From the IMG/VR virus record IMGVR_UViG_2639762987_000003: a stretch of 48,166 nt of DNA; one strand, given 5' to 3'. The stretch is from a virus. Taxonomy: Duplodnaviria > Heunggongvirae > Uroviricota > Caudoviricetes. A program made the position numbers and the translations under genes. The notes beneath the pieces were generated by a model. That model searched no databases. It was not told where the DNA came from and was given only the letters and a program-made list of their open reading frames with translations. Below are positions 2,404 through 48,166 of this stretch, piece by piece (position 1 is the first letter of the stretch; each line of letters begins with the position of its first letter).

Positions 2404-2785
2404 TTGAACCCCCTCCACGTAAGCGGGAAAGCATTCCAAAGATGCTACCGAGATCCTGGCTGTTTACGAACGTGAGGATTTTAATGGTCAATGCAGCCAC
2501 AATAACCGCACCAAGCGCATCCAGAGGACGATCGTTGTAGCTGGTCCATTTAGCAAGAAATGAGCCAACTAACGGCGCTCCAATCACTCCAACAATGAAC
2601 GATGTAAAGAAATAGCCAATCAGCTTGAGACGGCTAATATTCACCGCTGTAGCAACATAGAAAACAGCGCCAGCAAATGCCCCGAATACAACGCCGTAAT
2701 CAATACCAGTTGCAATACCAAAAACGCTGGCACCCATCAGGCCACCAGCAGCAACGGCCGTACCGGAAATTGGTTCTGCTGACAT
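2390..2785 (-). CDS. Holin (multi-pass small membrane protein)
   Basis: 131-aa Gly/Ala-rich hydrophobic protein with charged C-terminus, first gene of the lysis cassette. Confidence 0.55.
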   Translation of the reverse strand: MSAEPISGTAVAAGGLMGASVFGIATGIDYGVVFGAFAGAVFYVATAVNISRLKLIGYFFTSFIVGVIGAPLVGSFLAKWTSYNDRPLDALGAVIVAALTIKILTFVNSQDLGSIFGMLSRLRGGGSNGKQ

Positions 2786-2797
2786 TGAAATCCTCGT

Positions 2798-5381: not shown

Positions 5382-5680
5382 GCCACAGCCCCTCTCAACG
5401 GCTTAACTTTGGCTAATAAGGTGTTAAACAACATGGAGTTAGGATTCATGCCAAATGGCAATTCCGGTTTAGCGGAGTAGTACAGGCAACCATTTATTTT
5501 CCTGGTTGTTATCTGTCCTTCGGCAACCATGCTTCTCAGTCTGCAACGCATAGAGTTCTGCGACACACCAATGTGCTCCGCGATTACGTCCACTTTTGAA
5601 CATGGGTGATCGGTCAGGAAATTAATCACATCTTGGGGGTTAATAATTTTGCGTTTCATTGTCGAGGCGTCCTTATACAT
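5378..5680 (-). CDS. Hypothetical protein, possible small DNA-binding regulator
   Basis: 100-aa ORF directly downstream of an AT-rich motif and a hairpin terminator. Confidence 0.4.
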   Translation of the reverse strand: MYKDASTMKRKIINPQDVINFLTDHPCSKVDVIAEHIGVSQNSMRCRLRSMVAEGQITTRKINGCLYYSAKPELPFGMNPNSMLFNTLLAKVKPLRGAVA

Positions 5681-5704
5681 TTGTATAAATATATAATTCT
5701 ATAT

Positions 5705-5736: not shown

Positions 5737-6804
5737 TCAGGCTTTCAATAGCGATTCTTTTAGATATCGGGCATCAGCCAGGGCGTTTGGAGTAATCTTG
5801 CGAACCCATGCATTACGGGTTGGACTCCACTTAAAGGCGCGTGATTTAAGCAGCGAACGAATGTTTGCCTCTGGTTTGCCAGGGAAATAAAACAGGATGC
5901 GGTTATCCTCTGGATCTATCTCCATAGAAAAGCCGTCGTATTCTTCGCGCTGTGCTCCTGTTACAGACTTGACCGATTCAAGCTCCTTAATACGGCTCTG
6001 TAGTCGTTTGATTTCGGCGTTATTGTTGCTCAGTGCGTATGAAGGGAATCCGATGTGCCCACAGAAATCTCCGGCCAGTAACTCTTTGGCTTCGCTTTCT
6101 GTAAACCTGAGATCGATTAATGCAGAAAGCTGCTGTATTTGGTCTTTTTTGTATTTGCGAATGGCCTTATTTGCGGCCTTCATTTTGACGTGTGACTTCA
6201 TGCAGCCTTGCAGCTTACGAAGCAACTTAAATAGCGCATCAGGATCATCAGACGAAATTCCATTACGACCAACACCTGCGGCTTTGCTCTCGTAGTGTGA
6301 TGCTTTACTTTCGCATTCAACAAACGCTTTTCTGAATAACGCATCAGCTTTAGACAAACGGCGGCGATGGCCTTTCGCGCTATAATGGTCAACTAAAATC
6401 GGCTGGCCTAACGGGATCACATCCAACAGGTCATGCGCTCGCTTATGCGCTACCGCACCTTCTTTTCTGGCTTTTTCTGCACGAGCAATATATCGGGCAA
6501 GACGCGCGTTCTGGCGTTCCTGATAGGTGTTTACGTAATCATCTCCGCGCTGCTGCTGTTCAAGCCATGCTTTGCGCAGATCTTCTGTTACGTCCACCAG
6601 CTCCGCAGGGATACAACCAGTTTGGGCTTCATAAGAGTAACCATCCTCATAGATACGCCCATCGTCTTCAACAAAGAAAAAGGTTTCGTGCTCATCGCTT
6701 TTGACCATACGACCATTAACATGGCGTAATAGGTAGCCAGTATCAGTGCTTAACAGGCTGTTAGGGTTGTTGATCCAGTCAGAAATAATTACTTGTTTAT
6801 TCAT
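5737..6804 (-). CDS. Hypothetical 355-aa protein, first gene behind promoter cassette A
   Basis: Start set at the ATG 8 nt downstream of the cassette's GGAG; the longer track ORF (from 6858) translates the conserved leader. Confidence 0.6.
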   Translation of the reverse strand: MNKQVIISDWINNPNSLLSTDTGYLLRHVNGRMVKSDEHETFFFVEDDGRIYEDGYSYEAQTGCIPAELVDVTEDLRKAWLEQQQRGDDYVNTYQERQNARLARYIARAEKARKEGAVAHKRAHDLLDVIPLGQPILVDHYSAKGHRRRLSKADALFRKAFVECESKASHYESKAAGVGRNGISSDDPDALFKLLRKLQGCMKSHVKMKAANKAIRKYKKDQIQQLSALIDLRFTESEAKELLAGDFCGHIGFPSYALSNNNAEIKRLQSRIKELESVKSVTGAQREEYDGFSMEIDPEDNRILFYFPGKPEANIRSLLKSRAFKWSPTRNAWVRKITPNALADARYLKESLLKA

Positions 6805-6912
6805 CAGATTTCTCCGGTTTAACCAGGGCGGGTATCGCTCGGTTTCGGGTATAACCATAGGAAATTTTTTCCCACCTGTAAAGCACTTTTTATATAAATC
6901 TATAATTATATA
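6801..6912 (-). promoter_or_regulatory. Promoter-leader cassette copy A: TATAATTATA palindrome, -35 TTTACA, 17-bp spacer, -10 TATGGT, ~45-nt leader, GGAG, ATG
   Basis: Near-identical to 16776-16877 and 48055-48166; lies about 60 bp downstream of the Q-like gene. Confidence 0.6.
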
Positions 6913-6973
6913 TTTATAGATTTTCGATGTTCCCGATGTCTACACACCATCAAAACAGCTCAAAATGACACTT

Positions 6974-7351
6974 TTACTCTCTTCGCTTTTTCAAATAGTC
7001 GACAACATACGCCCTGGCTTTTGCCAGCTTCCGGCGATACTGTCTGAGGCTAAGAGAAAGGGCGTGGGCTTTATCAATATGCGGTGCATTTATGTCGAGG
7101 CCCCGAATCTCCCACGCCCCGTATTCAATTCGGACAACCAGCGCCGCAGTCTCATCAACTACCGTGAGGGCCGTCACCGCTCCCTCTATACTGGTTTCCA
7201 GTGAGTCATTTGGTGCGCCGCCCCCTCCGGTAAACTGGCAGCGCGTAACCATCATCATTTCTAACATCGACGCGAAACCGCTACGGGCGTTGCAGCCATT
7301 GCGCACCCACAGCGCCCATAGCTCAAACAAGCTATCCAGATCGCGTCTCAC
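6974..7351 (-). CDS. Putative Q-like antitermination protein
   Basis: 125-aa protein whose N-terminal pattern (MRRDLDSLFELWALWV) resembles small Q-family antiterminators; gene is followed immediately by promoter cassette A. Confidence 0.45.
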   Translation of the reverse strand: MRRDLDSLFELWALWVRNGCNARSGFASMLEMMMVTRCQFTGGGGAPNDSLETSIEGAVTALTVVDETAALVVRIEYGAWEIRGLDINAPHIDKAHALSLSLRQYRRKLAKARAYVVDYLKKRRE

Positions 7352-7354
7352 TGT

Positions 7355-7687
7355 TCAGATCTCCCGTATCGTGACGGGATAAAGCGCCTCTACCTGCTTT
7401 TTCTTCATGATGTAGACGTCTGTTCGCACACCTTTAGTGTCGACACAATCAATCGTCCCATCGTCATAAAACACCATGAAATCAAGTTTATAAACGACAC
7501 CACCTGGCAGATGAAAAGGCACCTGCATAAGAAACGTCACAACGCGGCCAGCTTTTCTCAGTAGCTTCAGTTCGCAGTAGTAATCAGCCTCTTTTTTGCT
7601 ATCAAAAGCGATATCATCGACAACCGTTTTTTTATTGCCGTATTTGCTTTTCCTTGTCGCTGGTTTGCGAAAGCCGGTATATCTCAT
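7355..7687 (-). CDS. DUF1064-like phage protein
   Basis: Motif SKYGNKKT...FDSKKEADYYCELKLLRKAG typical of the DUF1064 phage family. Confidence 0.55.
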   Translation of the reverse strand: MRYTGFRKPATRKSKYGNKKTVVDDIAFDSKKEADYYCELKLLRKAGRVVTFLMQVPFHLPGGVVYKLDFMVFYDDGTIDCVDTKGVRTDVYIMKKKQVEALYPVTIREI

Positions 7688-10627: not shown

Positions 10628-10650
10628 AGCGGGCTAACGCCCGCTTATAT
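10628..10650 (+). terminator. Rho-independent terminator-like hairpin
   Basis: agcgggc-taac-gcccgct followed by a T/A-rich stretch just after the 10248..10622 stop. Confidence 0.5.
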
Positions 10651-10750
10651 GATTATAGATTTATATAATTATATAAAACGCTTTTCATCAGCCAAAAAGT
10701 TGGTTATGCTTACCTCGTTCTATAAATATAGATTTATAGAATTATATAAC
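10651..10750. promoter_or_regulatory. Two AT-rich palindrome elements upstream of parA (perfect TATAATTATA at 10664-10673; variant TAGAATTATA at 10737-10746)
   Basis: Same motif family as at 23-32, 1159-1168, 6901-6910, 11429-11438 and 16866-16875. Confidence 0.55.
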
Positions 10751-11426: not shown

Positions 11427-11457
11427 TATATAATTATAGTTTTATAGATTTATATAA
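11421..11457. promoter_or_regulatory. AT-rich palindrome element (TATAATTATA at 11429-11438) between parA and the small downstream gene
   Basis: Motif family member followed by tatagatttatata. Confidence 0.5.
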
Positions 11458-11469
11458 GAGGGGATACAC

Positions 11470-11718
11470 ATGGCCGCACCATCAAAACCACCAAAGAAGA
11501 ACAGCAAAGGCGTACCGCCATCGATCGAACAACCGCAGGTTTTCGACCCGACTGAAACGCCAACCAGAACCAAATCAGGTGGGGCACAAATGGCGTTTAA
11601 CGTCGACCCTGAATTTAAACGCGAGTACAAAACGTTCGCCAGCTCAATGGATATGTCATTGAAAGAAGTGCTGACAAAGTCTTTTGAGTTACTCAAGGCT
11701 CAATACAACCAGAAGTAA
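11470..11718 (+). CDS. Small ParG-like (putative ribbon-helix-helix) partition partner
   Basis: 82-aa protein with a Pro/Lys-rich flexible N-terminus, directly after parA; fold assignment is inferred from size and position. Confidence 0.45.
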   Translation: MAAPSKPPKKNSKGVPPSIEQPQVFDPTETPTRTKSGGAQMAFNVDPEFKREYKTFASSMDMSLKEVLTKSFELLKAQYNQK

Positions 11719-11780: not shown

Positions 11781-11930
11781 ATGTCCGAGCAACAATATAC
11801 ACGGTTACTGAAAACTCGTCTAACCGACCTCAAACGGCTGCAAGCTGGCTGCTTATTTGCCCTGCTATCCACCAGGCCAGAATGGGTACGTGAAGCAGTT
11901 CTGAAAGGCTTAATGCGCTCCAGCGTTTAA
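11781..11930 (+). CDS. Hypothetical small protein
   Basis: ATG preceded by AAGGGGAA; 49 codons. Confidence 0.35.
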   Translation: MSEQQYTRLLKTRLTDLKRLQAGCLFALLSTRPEWVREAVLKGLMRSSV

Positions 11931-11937
11931 ATTCAGC

Positions 11938-11963
11938 CATAAAAAAAGGCCCCCGAAGGGGCC
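11938..11963 (-). terminator. Rho-independent terminator for minus-strand transcription
   Basis: Stem aggcccc/ggggcct with GAA loop, followed on the minus strand by 7 U. Confidence 0.65.
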
Positions 11964-11969
11964 TAATCG

Positions 11970-12092
11970 CTACTTGCTGCTAATGTTTATCGTCACATTC
12001 AGAGCGTTATCAGTAATCTTCCAACCCTCCCCATGTGGCGTAAACAAAGCCCCAGTAACAACGATAAAAATACACATACAGTATTTTTTCAT
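11970..12092 (-). CDS. Candidate 40-aa hydrophobic peptide (possible type I toxin or small secreted peptide)
   Basis: MKKYCMCIFIVVTGALFTPHGEGWKITDNALNVTINISSK; AAGGG 8-12 nt upstream of the ATG; own terminator downstream. Confidence 0.35.
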   Translation of the reverse strand: MKKYCMCIFIVVTGALFTPHGEGWKITDNALNVTINISSK

Positions 12093-12415
12093 TGTATGGC
12101 CCTTACAGGCCGTTTCACGGCATCCCCACCGACGAAAACAACGCGAGAGCAAGCACGGCTGCTTGTGCTTGCATGTACGGCAACGGAGAATCCTCCCCTA
12201 AAGTCGGTGCCCGGGTGCGAATCGGCGGGAAGGTCCACAGGTATTTTACGATTATTTTAAGATTAGTAATAGGAAAGAAATTAAACGAAAAAACTCGTTT
12301 ATTTTCACAAAATCAGTAACCTACCCACAATCTGTGAGTTTGCAGGCACAACAAGAACCACAATTTTTTGAAGCATAATAGTGGACTATTATTACCTTTT
12401 GGGTAAAATTAACTT

Positions 12416-12516
12416 GCTGCTTGTGCTTGCGTGGTTGTTTATACAACAACGTAATGCTGAAAGGACCGCGAATCCGATCAGCACGAAAGAACCGTCCTCA
12501 ATAGGGCGGTTTTTTT
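12416..12516 (+). ncRNA. Candidate ~100-nt sRNA, 5' 15-nt complementary to the leader of the 11970..12092 mRNA
   Basis: TAAAAT -10-like element at 12404-12409; 15-mer gctgcttgtgcttgc at 12416-12430 is identical to 12158-12172; two internal hairpins; terminator 12491-12516. Confidence 0.35.
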
Positions 12517-12535
12517 GTTTCTGCCTACCAATAAA

Positions 12536-12550
12536 CCCACGCTATGTGGT
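12536..12550. promoter_or_regulatory. Operator-like CCAC-N5-GTGG site upstream of the antirepressor leader
   Basis: cccacgctatgtggt, followed by TAAAAT (12560-12565) and TTGACA (12575-12580). Confidence 0.5.
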
Positions 12551-12585
12551 TGTCTCTGTTAAAATCCCGCCGTATTGACATGAAT

Positions 12586-12682
12586 GCGCCATTGGTGGAC
12601 ACTTTCCGAGCCGTAGCAAAATCTACGGTCGGGATTGGAACCCCGTGGACACAATGGCGCATACCGCGTTAGCGGTTTTTTT
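12586..12682 (+). ncRNA. Candidate structured regulatory RNA domain (P1 c4-like antisense RNA analogue)
   Basis: 9-bp closing stem gcgccattg/caatggcgc (12586-12594 with 12652-12660) encloses a hairpin and the element GAUUGGAACC; ends with a short hairpin plus 7 T. Confidence 0.35.
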
Positions 12683-12848
12683 ATGCGTAAAGCACTGCTA
12701 CACCCAAATTATGGTGGGGCGTGCGGGGGAGTCGTAAGACTCGCCGGTTCGTCATTGTGTCCGGTAGTTCCAACCCTGCACGTCTCACCACCCAATGATT
12801 GGAACCTGACGGTGGTGAGTATCCTTAACCTTTAAGGGAATCATCACA

Positions 12849-13040
12849 ATGACAAACCTACCCCATGACTATTACGTCAACCTCGTAAAGATCCTTCTCA
12901 AGAAAGCCTCATACGCCGATAAATTCCGCCTGGCTGAAATCATCGAGCGCGAAGCTATGCGCATCGCCAGCAACGATAACGCTGTTTCTGACGCAAAAAT
13001 CTCCCTCGTAACCAAAGTAGTTATGGGAGGTGCAAAATGA
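12849..13040 (+). CDS. Small protein upstream of and overlapping ant (icd-like position)
   Basis: 63-aa ORF with AAGGGA 9 nt upstream; its stop overlaps the ant start. Confidence 0.4.
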   Translation: MTNLPHDYYVNLVKILLKKASYADKFRLAEIIEREAMRIASNDNAVSDAKISLVTKVVMGGAK

Positions 13041-14179
13041 AAACGCTTCCGACCGTTAACACCCTACAGCCTATCCTGCATAACCAGATCCCCGTTATCA
13101 CTAGTGAACTTCTGGCGCAGTTATACGGAACAAAAATCAAAAACATTTCTGATAACTTTCTGAACAACACGACGCGATTCGTAGCCGGAAAGCATTACTT
13201 TAAAATTGAAAAAAACGAATTACGCGAGTTCAAGAACAGACCCGAAACAATCGGGTTAGTTGGTAAAAATGCCCGCTCCCTAATTCTCTGGACCGAACGC
13301 GGGGCTGCACGTCACGCTAAAATGCTCGAAACCGATCAGGCGTGGGATGTATTCGAACGGCTGGAAGACTGCTACTTCAACCAGAACGCGCAAACGGCCG
13401 CGACCGTAACCGTCTCGCCAAACAATGCTCGTGAGGTTGTCGATACGCTCAACGCCAAACCGATGTTTTACATTAAGGTGTGCAATAACGAGCCACTCAC
13501 AACCTCAGCCGATGTTGCCCAAGCATTCAGCACCACAAACAATTCCATCGTTATGGCCATCGATGCGTTACGCATTCCTCGCACAGCTGCGGCGCGTCAT
13601 TTCTTTAAAGAGCAACGACCGTTGGAAGGAAGCGACCGCGAAATAACAATCTATCGCATGACAAAAGACGGATTTACCTTGCTCATGGAGAGTATCGACG
13701 GTCCAGGCGTGAAAGATATCAAGCTGGCCTACATTGAAGCCTTTAACGCTATCAGCAGCGTGTTAAAAACACAGTACGAGCGTGATCTGGCTAAACGACT
13801 GTACCAGGAAAAAACGATTATCCGCGCGGCAACAGAGCATAATCGGCTATTAACGGAACCGAACTACAGGAAGGAACTAATAAAGGAGTTTGACAAGGCA
13901 ACAGGGAAAACCAAAGCGGCGCTAAATCTGCCAGCAATGACTCAGGAAAATGTGATATCAGCCTTACTTCTTGATCTGCTCAGAAACGCCAGAGCACTTA
14001 TCAGCTTTGACGAAAATCTGAACCCTCAGCTCAAACTACTACCACCGACAGGCAAAGTAGTCGACCAAGCTGATCACAACAGCATACTCAGCGTACTGGA
14101 TGCAAACCTGCCAGCCAGGACACTACAGGAACTGATAAAAATATCTGCGGATAAACTGGCCGCAGGTGCAAAACCATAA
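13037..14179 (+). CDS. Antirepressor (Ant-like)
   Basis: 380-aa protein whose N-terminal region resembles antirepressor N-terminal domains (ITSELLAQLYGTK...RFVAGKHYFKI...LWTERGAARHAKML). Confidence 0.7.
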   Translation: MKTLPTVNTLQPILHNQIPVITSELLAQLYGTKIKNISDNFLNNTTRFVAGKHYFKIEKNELREFKNRPETIGLVGKNARSLILWTERGAARHAKMLETDQAWDVFERLEDCYFNQNAQTAATVTVSPNNAREVVDTLNAKPMFYIKVCNNEPLTTSADVAQAFSTTNNSIVMAIDALRIPRTAAARHFFKEQRPLEGSDREITIYRMTKDGFTLLMESIDGPGVKDIKLAYIEAFNAISSVLKTQYERDLAKRLYQEKTIIRAATEHNRLLTEPNYRKELIKEFDKATGKTKAALNLPAMTQENVISALLLDLLRNARALISFDENLNPQLKLLPPTGKVVDQADHNSILSVLDANLPARTLQELIKISADKLAAGAKP

Positions 14180-16387: not shown

Positions 16388-16768
16388 TTACTTAACGAGG
16401 AATAAAAATGGTTTATCGTTCGGCGGTGTAATCGGGGCTGGCTCGCTTTTGCTCATGCGATCAGTGTACCAGGCCAACTCCTTGTCAAAGTAAGCCTGAT
16501 TAAAATAGGCCATGAATGTGGTTTCAAATCCATAACGACCGCTAATACGCAGCATCTGATTGCCGTTCTCTGTTTCCAGATATACCTGGGCACGTTCCTG
16601 ATTCTCCTTCAGCCAGGTTAAAGCCTCATCGCACGAGGACAAACGATACTCATCATCGTAGCCGTCATCGATGCGGCTTGAAGAAGAACGGCAAATCACG
16701 CCAACAGAACCAGCCAGGATAGTTTGAATTTTAAGGAAAGCGTTTTTGCGGATTTTAATCATGCTCAT
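16388..16768 (-). CDS. Hypothetical protein, first gene behind promoter cassette B
   Basis: 126-aa ORF whose ATG lies 8 nt after the cassette's GGAG. Confidence 0.5.
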   Translation of the reverse strand: MSMIKIRKNAFLKIQTILAGSVGVICRSSSSRIDDGYDDEYRLSSCDEALTWLKENQERAQVYLETENGNQMLRISGRYGFETTFMAYFNQAYFDKELAWYTDRMSKSEPAPITPPNDKPFLFLVK

Positions 16769-16775
16769 CGGGTTA

Positions 16776-16877
16776 TCTCCGGTTTAACCAGGGCGGGTAT
16801 CGCTCGGTTTCGGGTATAACCATAGGAAATTTTTTCCCACCTGTAAAGCACTTTTTATATAAATCTATAATTATATA
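16776..16877 (-). promoter_or_regulatory. Promoter-leader cassette copy B (identical to copy A over 102 bp)
   Basis: Same -35 TTTACA / -10 TATGGT / leader / GGAG as copy A; contains TATAATTATA at 16866-16875. Confidence 0.6.
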
Positions 16878-16889
16878 ATTCTATGAGCA

Positions 16890-28814: not shown

Positions 28815-31599
28815 AACTTAATCTCCGTTGTTGGAACATATGAGCACTCAATTTCTTCTCAAAATCAGAATATCCCGCATCTAATGCTCTTTTAGCTGCC
28901 GCCTCAGTTTCCTTTGGTGAACCAGCCGGAAGATTGATTACAGGTGAATAGGTTATTCCACCAGTCACAGCGTTAACGTTCTGGCGAGGTCCAGAAGTCC
29001 CGGCGGCAGATATCCCGTGAGGTGATAAATTTGATTGCCCGAACTTGCTTGCTATTGCATTCTGTAAGCTGTTATTCCTGCTAACACCTGATGCCAGAGT
29101 AGTCATTATTGCACCACCTGACTTTGTTAGCTGTGAGAATGGACCTTTTTTCGCGTCAGAGAACGGTAAATACTCACGTACAGAAGAAAAAACGCCTTTC
29201 ACTTCATTAATTAAAGCATTTGCTTTTGATTTTATCCCAGTGATTAACGTCTCAATTATTTTTGCGCCTGACTCACTCCAGTTTATTCCAGATAAATAAG
29301 TCGTTACAGATTGGAATGCTCTTATAAAGAGTCCAACTGGTGAAAAACGCATAAAAACAGATACCAGTGTATCTATGATTTTCTTTCCTGTTTCGCTCCA
29401 GTTAATGCCAGAAAGGTAATTTGTTGTAATTTTAAATGCTTTAATTAAGAACGGAAGCGGAGACATCCATTTAAAAGCACTAATTAATGTACTGTAAATT
29501 CTTACACCTGCCGAACTCCAGTTTATGTTGGAAAGATAATCCCATGCTTTACCAAACATAGATATAATCCATCCATTGAGGTCAAAGTTTAAGATAAAGT
29601 TTTTTATAGCCTCAAATGATTTAACTGTATATTCCTTAACAGAAGGCCAAACTCTGACAGCATAATCTCTGATCTTATCCCAATTCTGATAGAGCAATAT
29701 TCCTGCGGCAACCAGCGCAGATATAGCCATCTGAATCCACCCGAAGGGTGTTAGCTTTGTCGCTACAGATAAAGCCAGCATAGCTACCCTACACGCTATA
29801 ACCACACTTTTCATGGTTAGAAACGCACCTGCCGCCATCACTATCTGAGACACAAAATTGGGGTTGTTAGCTACAAATTCACTAATTTTTGTAATCAGCG
29901 GAACCAAAACACTAAGCGCGGCATTCAAAGCAGGTTGCAAGGCCTGACCAAAACTTAATGATGCATTGCTAGCCTGAATACGTAATTGTTTCAATCGCTC
30001 CGCATTATCTTTCGTTATGTTGGCAAAATCGCGGTCAATAACAGCACTTCCAGCTCCAAGAGATGTTGCTTTGATTCTCTGGTATTCCTTCCAGTTTTGA
30101 ATCATCGGACGAACAAAGTTCTGAACCTGCATATCGCCAAATAGTTCACCAAGTAACTTCTGATCTCCGTTCTTAGTCATTTTCATGACAGAATGCATTG
30201 CAGCTTCGAATGGATTCTTCCCTTTTTTCTGCGCTGTTGTAACAATTTTATATAAATCTACACCGAAATTTTTCTTTGCTTTTTTTAGTGTTTCAGGGGA
30301 AAGTATTTTTGCCAAAAAGTTGTTCATATTATTAGCAGCCTCATCCGAAGTTGCAGCCCCCTTGCGAGCTATCTGCAAAGCTGCACCCATCGTCGCGGCT
30401 GCTTCTTTACCTCCCATTTTTAATGCCTGGAACTGAGCACCAAGCACAGGAAGATTTTTGGCCATATCTTTAAATTCAAAGTTCCCCTCTTTCCCTGCCT
30501 GAACCAGAATCCCCATTGCAGACTTCATTTGAGATGGATCAATCTTCAATGAGTCACTTAATGTAAATGATGCTTTCGAGACATCGAGGATATCAGAGCC
30601 AGTAGCTGTAGCTGTTCGCCCAATAGTTAGTAGATTCGCCTGAGCCTCTTTATAATCCTGCCCAGCAGCGACGAGAAAACCCTGAGCGGCCTGAATATCA
30701 GATGCAAACTGGTTGGTAGCCGTTCCGGTAACAAGCATCGCCTGCCCCATCGCCTGAACTTCTTCCGGCTTCATATCTGCCGTAAGACCAATCATTTTGT
30801 TTTCACGATTGAAATTTGCTGCATTGTTAGCAGCAGCAAATGCACCAGCCGCTACAGCACCAGTTTGTAATCCTGACCTTACAAGTTGACTCTTTGCCTC
30901 ACCAAGATGCTCTCGCTTCAATTCACGCTGCCTTTCCAACGCGCGGTTTAACTCCTCCTGAGCACGTTTTACTGCAAGAACATTTTTCCGTGCTTCAGCC
31001 AACGCATTTTTATAGCTGTTAATTTTATCAATACGTTGTTTTTCTAATGCCCGGTTAAGTTCCTCCTGCTGTTTTTTCACTTGCTGAACATTTGCTCTGG
31101 CTAAAGCCAAAGCCGTTCTGTAGCGGTTAACCTGCTCAACGCTACGGGCCTGAGCCTCACGATTACGATCAATGCTGGCTTTAAGCTCTTTCTCTCTTGA
31201 GGCCAAAGCTCTGGCAGATGTATCAGCTCCCTGATAGGCAGACTTTAAAGCGGCCAGTTCTTCACGCTGAGAACGTAGTGATGCTCGTAAATTCGATGAA
31301 TGTGTTTTTGCCTTCTCAAAGTCACGAAGCATCGCTCTGGTTGGATTGGCCGTGTTTTTTATTTGCTTCTGTAACTCTTCAACGCGAGCGGCAGCTTTAT
31401 GATATTCGAGGGCAGTCTGTCCAACCTTTACTTTTACAGATTGTAGCTTTTGAATTTCCCCATGTTCTTTCGTTAATCCAGCAAGCTCGGCATTTAATTT
31501 AGCAACAGCCTGATTAGCTGTAGTAAAACTTTTGGGGAGAGAGGCGGCAACTTTGCCGCCAATTTCAAAAGCCAGCTTAAAGTTCTTATTGCTGGCCAT
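28807..31599 (-). CDS. Tail tape measure protein
   Basis: 930-aa protein with long coiled-coil N-terminal part and three SGINWSE(S/T)G...II(D/E)TL repeats. Confidence 0.85.
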   Translation of the reverse strand: MASNKNFKLAFEIGGKVAASLPKSFTTANQAVAKLNAELAGLTKEHGEIQKLQSVKVKVGQTALEYHKAAARVEELQKQIKNTANPTRAMLRDFEKAKTHSSNLRASLRSQREELAALKSAYQGADTSARALASREKELKASIDRNREAQARSVEQVNRYRTALALARANVQQVKKQQEELNRALEKQRIDKINSYKNALAEARKNVLAVKRAQEELNRALERQRELKREHLGEAKSQLVRSGLQTGAVAAGAFAAANNAANFNRENKMIGLTADMKPEEVQAMGQAMLVTGTATNQFASDIQAAQGFLVAAGQDYKEAQANLLTIGRTATATGSDILDVSKASFTLSDSLKIDPSQMKSAMGILVQAGKEGNFEFKDMAKNLPVLGAQFQALKMGGKEAAATMGAALQIARKGAATSDEAANNMNNFLAKILSPETLKKAKKNFGVDLYKIVTTAQKKGKNPFEAAMHSVMKMTKNGDQKLLGELFGDMQVQNFVRPMIQNWKEYQRIKATSLGAGSAVIDRDFANITKDNAERLKQLRIQASNASLSFGQALQPALNAALSVLVPLITKISEFVANNPNFVSQIVMAAGAFLTMKSVVIACRVAMLALSVATKLTPFGWIQMAISALVAAGILLYQNWDKIRDYAVRVWPSVKEYTVKSFEAIKNFILNFDLNGWIISMFGKAWDYLSNINWSSAGVRIYSTLISAFKWMSPLPFLIKAFKITTNYLSGINWSETGKKIIDTLVSVFMRFSPVGLFIRAFQSVTTYLSGINWSESGAKIIETLITGIKSKANALINEVKGVFSSVREYLPFSDAKKGPFSQLTKSGGAIMTTLASGVSRNNSLQNAIASKFGQSNLSPHGISAAGTSGPRQNVNAVTGGITYSPVINLPAGSPKETEAAAKRALDAGYSDFEKKLSAHMFQQRRLSFG

Positions 31600-47792: not shown

Positions 47793-48058
47793 TCATCATC
47801 TCCTGCCGCACATACAACCTCACAAAAAAAATCAGCAGAATGTTTCTCCTTGAACGAATGACGCTCAAAACCGCACTCAATATCAGGCGCAAAAACATCC
47901 ACCACATACGGTCTTTCAGAATGTTTGTTTTCCCAACGATAAACCGTAGTGACGTTGAAATGTTTTAACGCTTCACGGAACTCAACGCTGCCCGTCAGGT
48001 TTTTTGAGGTCAGGTATTGCAGGAGGTTTTTTACTACTTCACGGTCTTGTACTTTCAT
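47789..48058 (-). CDS. Hypothetical protein, first gene behind promoter cassette C
   Basis: Start set at the ATG 8 nt after the cassette's GGAG (MKVQDREVV...); the longer track ORF translates the leader. Confidence 0.5.
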   Translation of the reverse strand: MKVQDREVVKNLLQYLTSKNLTGSVEFREALKHFNVTTVYRWENKHSERPYVVDVFAPDIECGFERHSFKEKHSADFFCEVVCAAGDDE

Positions 48059-48166
48059 CAGATTTCTCCGGTTTAACCAGGGCGGGTATCGCTCGGTTTC
48101 GGGTATAACCATAGGAAATTTTTTCCCACCTGTAAAGCACTTTTTATATAAATATATAATTATATA
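48055..48166 (-). promoter_or_regulatory. Promoter-leader cassette copy C (continues across the circular join into positions 1-34)
   Basis: Same -35 TTTACA (48136-48131) / -10 TATGGT (48113-48108) / leader / GGAG as copies A and B; one mismatch in the AT-rich end; TATAATTATA at 48155-48164. Confidence 0.6.

Follow-up and report, generated by a model that had tools for sequence, protein, structure and literature searches.

What is the pair of short transcription units at positions 11,938 to 12,516 of IMG/VR record IMGVR_UViG_2639762987_000003, a 48,166-nucleotide caudoviral sequence that we refer to as a whole as the window? An earlier note, made from the letters alone, had proposed a type I toxin-antitoxin-like pair, in which a minus-strand gene for a hydrophobic 40-residue peptide stands opposite a divergent plus-strand small RNA (sRNA) sharing a 15-nt match with the peptide mRNA leader, and every element that it listed was found where it had been placed. 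We consider it very probable that the two genes form a timP/TimR type I toxin-antitoxin module. Judged by sequence comparison, the locus appears to be a diverged, mobile-element-borne copy of this known enterobacterial pair, whose RNA family is ryfA. The ryfA RNA is now known to encode the small toxin TimP and to be under repression by a divergent sRNA, TimR (PMC7667032). The pair was formerly named ryfA and STnc2070/RyfB, and the RefSeq annotation of Escherichia coli K-12 lists timR (b4811), ryfA (b4440) and timP (b4812). The identification is directly supported by RNA and peptide homology, conservation of structural elements, complementarity and co-variation, and cassette-like presence or absence. 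The family itself has already been described and mechanistically dissected; the present copy is a diverged member that is mobile-borne and unannotated.

Identity of the locus

The three units on which the identification turns are as follows.

11942..12238, minus strand: timP mRNA of about 297 nt (Rfam ryfA, RF00126 match)
11970..12092, minus strand: timP open reading frame (ORF), 40 codons plus a TAG stop, start at +147 of the mRNA
12416..12516, plus strand: TimR sRNA of about 101 nt with a presumed 5' end, its 5' 18 nt (12416-12433) complementary to the timP leader

The minus strand from 12238 to 11942 matches the Rfam family ryfA (RF00126) over model positions 1-296 of 296, with 141.8 bits against a gathering score of 80 (E = 1.7e-36), and eight related loci match the same family with 134-174 bits. 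When the locus was searched against type I toxin families, as the earlier note had suggested, the only matches were ryfA in Rfam and toxic_TimP in NCBIfam. The proposed architecture, a small peptide mRNA with a divergent, non-overlapping sRNA complementary to its leader, is thus borne out by the full-length ryfA match, TimP homology, a leader site equivalent to that of K-12, and co-variation of the complementary segments. Our homologues comprised plasmids L003-L005, Yersinia phage L001, the IMG/VR contigs L020, L064, L065 and L113, and a locus from assembled reads, L007.

The product of the ORF read from 12092 to 11970 on the minus strand is MKKYCMCIFIVVTGALFTPHGEGWKITDNALNVTINISSK, 40 amino acids. 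BLASTP aligns it over its whole length with K-12 TimP (MKIRCFCIVLIVSGALLTEVNNNRSLSGDNLLVVNNLQSSK) at 36% identity (E = 4e-8), and the two share the pattern MK..C.CI..IV.GAL.T...DN.L.V.N..SSK. NCBIfam model NF040796 (toxic_TimP), the sole family match of the peptide, aligns with residues 1-40 of 40 (E = 7.1e-5) at 23 bits, below the cut-off of 45 bits; K-12 TimP scores 86.8 bits. Pfam returned no match for either the window peptide or K-12 TimP. On these scores the window peptide would belong to a diverged subfamily of TimP and not be an equivalog. It had been described as strongly hydrophobic, which holds for residues 1-18 (Kyte-Doolittle mean +1.47) and not for the remainder (-0.52); the corresponding values for K-12 TimP are +1.92 and -0.68. 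Together with a Lys-Lys in the N-terminal region, the hydropathy may point to a signal-peptide-like N-terminus.

The ORF is uninterrupted in all nine homologues, which have 39-41 codons and the same start offset, and pN/pS lies between 0.11 and 0.72 in seven of eight comparisons. Its start at +147 in the window coincides with that of K-12, and the Salmonella ORF starts at +145 (PMC7667032). A search of 5.8 billion proteins with the peptide returned only two, because ORFs so small are rarely called; one of them, P0002, pointed to the diverged locus L007.

The timP leader

The published timP leader folds into four stem-loops (SL), with the TimR site in SL2 and the Shine-Dalgarno sequence in SL4, and is further shaped by two long-range contacts: a 7-bp pseudoknot that joins site 1 to site 3, and a pairing of site 2 with site 4 by which the Shine-Dalgarno sequence is freed (PMC11228461, PMC13000454). 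The corresponding elements of the window, with sites 2 and 4 defined as in PMC13000454, are listed below in mRNA order.

12243..12248, minus strand: putative -10 box of the timP promoter, TAAAAT, 5 nt 5' of the modelled RNA start
12203..12209, minus strand: pseudoknot site 1, CACCGAC, mRNA nt 30-36, in upper SL1, fully complementary to site 3
12177..12181, minus strand: site 2, GCCGU, mRNA nt 58-62, long-range partner of the SL4 5' flank
12158..12175, minus strand: predicted TimR binding site, mRNA nt 64-81, an 18-nt repeat with one difference from 12416-12433
12149..12172, minus strand: SL2, mRNA nt 67-90, with an 8-bp stem and an 8-nt loop; 96% of cells paired across homologues
12127..12133, minus strand: pseudoknot site 3, GUCGGUG, mRNA nt 106-112, in the SL3 loop, pairing with site 1
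12109..12113, minus strand: site 4, the 5' flank of SL4, pairing with site 2
12096..12113, minus strand: SL4, sequestering the Shine-Dalgarno sequence AAGGG (12100-12104); placed by the Rfam alignment, with 92% of helix cells paired across homologues and two compensatory pairs
11940..11964, minus strand: timP intrinsic terminator, stem 11964..11947 with seven pairs (six G-C), then a T-run

We scored the published architecture on an alignment of ten homologues, with slid partners as the control. The four-stem-loop leader is paired in 97% of cells, against 37-47% with slid partners, and eight pairs have changed on both sides. The pseudoknot (CACCGAC/GUCGGUG in the window, CGCUGGC/GCCAGUG in K-12) is paired in 100% of cells with two compensatory pairs, and the 5-bp site 2-4 pairing GCCGU/ACGGC is kept in all ten sequences (slid controls, 24-52%) with no two-sided change. 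The window thus has all published leader elements required for translation. The leader is also the best-conserved part of the timP mRNA among the homologues.

Several features named by the earlier note fall into place within this structure. Its palindrome at 12149-12172 is SL2, the Shine-Dalgarno sequence lies 7 nt 5' of the ATG and the peptide gene does have a terminator of its own. A -10-like hexamer (TAAAAT, TAATAT, TAACAT, TACTAT or TATTAT) occurs at equal offset from the presumed timP transcription start in all nine homologues. The leader also contains a 19-codon upstream ORF that overlaps the TimR site; the equivalent upstream ORF is dispensable in Salmonella (PMC11228461).

The TimR unit

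The plus-strand unit carries its own promoter-like and terminator-like elements.

12382..12409, plus strand: sigma-70-type TimR promoter, TGGACT, 16-nt spacer, TAAAAT
12485..12516, plus strand: TimR intrinsic terminator, a 14-bp hairpin followed by U7 in the minimum-energy fold

The first position of the presumed TimR, G12416, lies 7 nt past the -10 element. In the predicted fold of the RNA from 12416 to 12516, a 5' tail that is for the most part unpaired is followed by two hairpins and then by a terminator hairpin with a U-run; the energy is -40.3 kcal/mol (z = -5.35; none of 200 shuffles folded as well). Both the promoter-like site and the fold agree with the TAAAAT element, two hairpins and terminator that had been described for this unit, although a simple terminator scan did not list the terminator at 12491-12516 that is seen in the RNA fold. 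In all homologues the -35 (TGGACT, TGGACA, TAGACA or TTGACA) and -10 elements keep a fixed distance to the complementary stretch, and the promoters and terminators of both genes are conserved in position. K-12 TimR is 100 nt long and likewise opens with the complementary stretch; the core CUG(G)AAAGG(A)CCGCGAA is common to the window TimR and both K-12 TimR-type copies. A permissive Rfam scan of 11800-12900 assigned no family to the TimR unit and gave only chance-level matches, RNAI with 26.7 bits against 47 and Phe_leader with 23.1 bits against 55. A 65-amino-acid ORF with a GTG start at 12381-12578 runs across TimR; we rejected it as a gene, as it spans the promoter and the terminator.

K-12 itself holds a second TimR-like gene (L002, NC_000913.3, about 2682-2790, minus strand), with its own TTGACA promoter, a GGCCGCGAACC core and a terminator. 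It sits between the annotated timR (b4811) and ryfA and is absent from the RefSeq feature table, and its 5' end (GCUGAGACGCGCUUGCAUU) fails to match SL2 of the ryfA now present. In addition, the 5' end of ryfA has a 16-nt copy 321 nt 5' of ryfA. The two look like remnants of a tandem second timPR copy.

Complementarity and co-variation between TimR and the timP leader

The exact 15-nt match of the earlier note, GCTGCTTGTGCTTGC, stands at 12158 and 12416; the true repeat is longer, extending over 18 nt (12158-12175 versus 12416-12433) with one difference. These are the only two occurrences of the 15-mer in the window, both on the plus strand, and allowing up to two mismatches adds no further match there. 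Shuffled sequence gave a mean of 0.09 matches, with two or more in none of 100 shuffles. The corresponding RNA duplex would consist of 15 Watson-Crick pairs, one G.U pair and two more Watson-Crick pairs. The predicted site takes in the 5' arm of SL2 together with its loop, and in the alignment it falls in the columns of the K-12 site.

Pairing of 17-20 bp between TimR and timP at mRNA nt 63-83 is kept in eight distinct lineages. The duplex sequence varies at 12 columns among them, yet each TimR matches its own timP, as illustrated by GCAAGCACAAGCAGC (window), CACGCAAGCACAAGCGG, AUGCAAGCACUAACCUG, AUGCAAGCCUUAACCAG, GCACAAGUAAGC and the K-12 pair. In a 9x9 matrix of duplex energies the cognate pair is best in every row. 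Window TimR with K-12 timP reaches -22.8 kcal/mol, against -45.3 for the K-12 cognate pair; more generally, the mismatched window/K-12 pairs give -22.8 and -26.5 kcal/mol and the cognate pairs -45.3 and -39.3. Given this mismatch between the partners of the window and those of K-12, the plasmid system is predicted to be insulated from the host's chromosomal timPR, with no cross-talk. A second repeat, 11972-11988 versus 12412-12428, would pair the end of the ORF with the TimR start region; we regard it as incidental, as it lies mostly 5' of the presumed TimR start.

A cassette on a phage-plasmid

Several E. coli plasmids of about 47-49 kb match the window with 100% identity over the regions searched. 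The one annotation of such a plasmid that we examined lists P2-like tail, capsid, portal, terminase and holin genes together with RepA, ParA and a RelE/ParE-type toxin-antitoxin pair. The combination of phage structural and lysis genes with RepA and ParA identifies the window as an E. coli phage-plasmid of about 48 kb. Its relatives include the Yersinia phages vB_YpM_39, 41 and 44. By blastn, the locus occurs in 72 of 5,426 complete E. coli genomes, and 73 of its 74 places are on plasmids; chromosomal ryfA was not picked up in this search at E <= 1e-5. Only with the covariance model, with the peptide or with small-word BLAST (67% identity over 202 nt) could the mobile and chromosomal clades be linked. 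Among Enterobacterales species-representative genomes the exact leader pattern of the mobile clade was not found, and the scan returned ten unrelated chance loci, mostly from high-G+C lineages. A scan of viral contigs with a 14-mer of the TimR core gave 113 stretches, mostly chance matches, of which about 11 proved real after BLAST filtering.

RefSeq annotates nothing on the identical plasmid between an 82-aa gene and a 63-aa gene, and the 1.1-kb stretch with timP, TimR, isrK and C4 is unannotated in the RefSeq copies. Taken with the sub-threshold NCBIfam score of the peptide, this implies that annotation pipelines systematically miss the mobile timPR clade. In the searchable literature we found no report of timPR on phages or plasmids; everything published that we came across deals with chromosomal copies.

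The limits of the mobile unit are given by its presence and absence among relatives.

11931..12573, no strand assigned: whole timP-TimR cassette, 643 bp, an insertion/deletion unit

In the Salmonella plasmid pAR-0407-1 (L132), homology to the window runs through 11930 and resumes at 12574, with 17 bp between, and the 9.2-kb stretch that we examined has no ryfA match. In L007, L064 and L065, timPR instead lies at another site, downstream of a Rha-type antirepressor gene, in the same internal orientation. Carriers of the locus include plasmid NZ_LR130559.1 and the 48.4-kb plasmid NZ_CP037450.1 of E. coli ATCC 25922, the latter with a variant at 12561-13145. On this comparative evidence, the 643-bp unit appears to behave as an insertable cassette.

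Variation around the unit was also seen. In some variants a helix-turn-helix gene is inserted directly after the TimR terminator: L001 (vB_YpM_39, 6816-7496) and L004 (the ATCC 25922 plasmid, about 2061-2588) carry an extra insertion of about 680 bp there, encoding a helix-turn-helix protein of about 175-180 aa on the opposite strand, which makes the TimR-isrK junction a hot spot of gene gain. The spacer between the timP and TimR promoters (12239-12400) cannot be aligned among variants, and both genes in these variants are 92-97% identical to those of the window; the regulatory region thus seems to have been replaced, and transcription may be controlled differently.

Proposed mechanism and role

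In the Salmonella homologue, the sRNA perturbs a structural switch in the leader; it acts neither by blocking a standby site nor by cleavage (PMC11228461, PMC13000454). There, the overexpressed peptide is toxic, the inner membrane becomes leaky and TimR rescues the cells, all of which has been established for the Salmonella homologue alone, and a start-codon mutant is harmless, so the toxic agent is the protein and not the RNA (PMC7667032). For the window copy, we infer transcription of both RNAs, toxicity of the peptide and repression by TimR. By this analogy, the minus strand would give a timP mRNA of about 297 nt whose 146-nt leader forms four stem-loops, the last hiding the ribosome-binding site, and the plus strand would give the divergent TimR of about 101 nt, starting some 175 nt away. 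For timP to be translated, the 7-bp pseudoknot of sites 1 and 3 would have to form, as would the pairing of sites 2 and 4 that makes the Shine-Dalgarno sequence accessible. TimR would pair by its 5' 18 nt with SL2 (nt 64-81) of the active conformer and destabilise the pseudoknot, so that SL4 would stay closed, 30S subunits would not load and timP would not be translated. Upon depletion of TimR, TimP would be made, enter the inner membrane and render it leaky. These steps are established in Salmonella (PMC7667032, PMC11228461, PMC13000454), and the window copy contributes the conservation of the elements only.

Inferred from context, the most likely role is selfish or stabilising, with the cassette exacting a cost when the phage-plasmid is lost; stabilisation is favoured because TimR is the less stable RNA in Salmonella. 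A wider proposal, which we put forward tentatively and hold to be possible but rather doubtful, is that the mobile timPR clade as a whole is a working addiction or exclusion cassette whose TimR specificity has been driven away from that of chromosomal timPR, leaving no cross-repression. If true, this would be the first natural setting in which TimR loss has a selectable consequence, and it would open a route to the biological role of the timPR family, the function of which was given as unknown by its discoverers (PMC7667032). A cassette-like copy with its own recognition sequence provides a natural test bed for this in plasmid maintenance or phage competition, and it also suits the study of how antitoxin specificity diverges.

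Several observations weigh against identifying the locus as a functional timP/TimR module or against the role proposed for it. With a score under the curated cut-off and only 36% identity to K-12 TimP, toxicity of the window peptide cannot be assumed. No more than 1-2 nt distinguish the two copies of the repeat in the window and in its closest relatives L001, L003 and L005; recombination between variants, and not compensatory changes that arose independently, could therefore account for part of the co-variation. The pairing of sites 1 and 2 by which the inactive conformer is locked in the published model does not seem to be clearly kept in the window: by inspection, only three of five positions pair in the K-12 register, an alternative 4-bp register (GGCA/UGCC) exists, and sites 1 and 2 are nearly invariant within the mobile clade. 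In Salmonella, timR deletion at native expression did not slow growth, and timPR deletions affected neither P22 infection nor persisters (PMC7667032); these null phenotypes weaken both an addiction role and a defence role. Finally, a partition gene, ParA, and a type II toxin-antitoxin pair of RelE/ParE type are already present on the element.

Alternative explanations

The strength of the RNA-family match invites a different reading, in which the minus-strand transcript is mainly a regulatory RNA, RyfA, with the small ORF secondary and the plus-strand RNA serving only to titrate or destabilise it. Published work connects RyfA with stress resistance, biofilm formation and virulence in Shigella and in E. 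coli of the uropathogenic and avian pathogenic kinds (PMC8205139, PMC10664665, PMC13188913), and these phenotypes, the strong conservation of the leader and an RNA-family score of 141.8 bits, far above the 23 bits of the peptide, all speak for it. However, the ORF is intact in nine of nine homologues with a constant start offset and 39-41 codons, pN/pS is below 1 in seven of eight comparisons, and the conserved leader elements are those that control translation (PMC11228461, PMC13000454). The Salmonella start-codon mutant, moreover, is harmless (PMC7667032). We judge a primarily regulatory RNA to be improbable. Still less can be said for taking the plus-strand RNA as a plasmid replication-control or other unrelated antisense RNA with an incidental 15-mer. 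In favour of this idea, Rfam matches 12422-12517 weakly to RNAI (26.7 bits, E = 0.014), but that score is far under the gathering score of 47, and on the identical plasmid repA lies about 6 kb off with more than ten genes between. Chance would not be expected to produce the 15-mer, which also co-varies with the leader, and the plus-strand RNA has its core and layout in common with K-12 TimR. We give this explanation next to no weight, and the RNAI reading is effectively refuted by the co-variation of TimR with the leader.

The cassette might instead be an anti-phage or exclusion module, in which TimR, being short-lived, would run out upon infection by a second phage or once host transcription is shut off; TimP would then permeabilise the membrane and the infection would be aborted. 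The location agrees with this: it is an accessory cassette on a temperate element, it adjoins an immunity region (isrK, C4 and an antirepressor gene), and it has moved within that region. Against it stands the finding that P22 infection is unaffected by Salmonella timPR deletions (PMC7667032). The mechanism is shared with the phage-plasmid stabilisation that we prefer, and only trigger and benefit differ. We regard a defence role as unlikely, though as an alternative that has to be reckoned with.

Neighbouring features

A P1-type immI immunity module lies directly 3' of TimR (12597-14179). It includes isrK (12610-12682, 65.8 bits), the C4 antisense RNA (12707-12795, 77.8 bits) and a sub-threshold match to the c4-a1b1 target (12597-12649, 37.8 bits against 46.7), and a 63-aa ORF (12849-13040) overlaps an ORF6N/antirepressor-type gene (13037-14179). 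Elsewhere in the window, a tRNA gene at 937-1009 on the minus strand (67 bits) has the anticodon CAU and is given as tRNA-Ile in the annotation of the identical plasmid.

An AT-rich motif of the type TATATAAATcTATAATTATATAAT occurs about nine times, mostly between operons, one such place being just upstream of parA.

1-42, 1137-1186, 5662-5703, 6879-6920, 10634-10675, 10707-10748, 11428-11470 (inverted), 16844-16885 and 30246-30278: occurrences of the AT-rich motif

The timPR cassette has similar motifs on its flanks in L007, L064 and L065. The motif may be a shared operator or promoter element of the phage-plasmid family. A 121-nt direct repeat is present in three copies (6792-6912, 16757-16877 and 48046-48166) with 88-97% identity, each ending in the AT-rich motif.

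Comparison with known systems

The closest known systems are the timP/TimR pairs of Salmonella Typhimurium and E. coli K-12, which are chromosomal and lie in the sseA-sseB region, whereas the window copy is carried by a phage-plasmid or phage. In common with them, the window has an RF00126 RNA of about 300 nt and an ORF of about 40 codons near +145 whose product has a hydrophobic, possibly signal-like N-terminus. The leader agrees as well: it has four stem-loops, holds the Shine-Dalgarno sequence in SL4 and has both long-range contacts, the pseudoknot of sites 1 and 3 and the pairing of sites 2 and 4. So does the divergent sRNA, about 100 nt long, which is complementary to SL2 over 18 nt at its extreme 5' end and closes with an intrinsic terminator. 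Unlike that of K-12, the window peptide falls under the NCBIfam cut-off, at 36% identity, and the recognition sequence is different and predicted to be orthogonal. The two starts are about 175 nt apart, compared with 400 nt in the annotated K-12 pair. Also unlike the chromosomal systems, the window does not clearly conserve the site 1-2 'inactive lock', and its genes form a 643-bp insertion/deletion cassette.

The earlier note had likened the locus to zor/orz or tisB/istR-type systems. The gene arrangement does correspond: zorO-orzO, tisB-istR1, shoB-ohsC and dinQ-agrB of E. coli have the same divergent, non-overlapping antitoxin, and in such systems, as predicted here, the toxin leader is bound far 5' of the ribosome-binding site by a short stretch of the sRNA. 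The likeness does not extend to sequence or family, for which NCBIfam and Rfam gave only TimP and ryfA, so that the locus is better placed in the timP/TimR family. The zorO-orzO-type systems moreover need mRNA processing and a ribosome standby site, whereas timP is an unprocessed structural switch (PMC11228461, PMC13000454). Plasmid R1's hok/sok system belongs to an unrelated family and differs in that Sok overlaps the mok/hok leader in cis, activation needs processing at the 3' end, and there is translational coupling to the upstream mok frame. Nonetheless, hok/sok is likewise a type I pair on a mobile replicon that encodes a small membrane-damaging peptide, and its combination of a stable toxin mRNA with a labile antisense RNA provides a functional model for the killing of plasmid-free cells.

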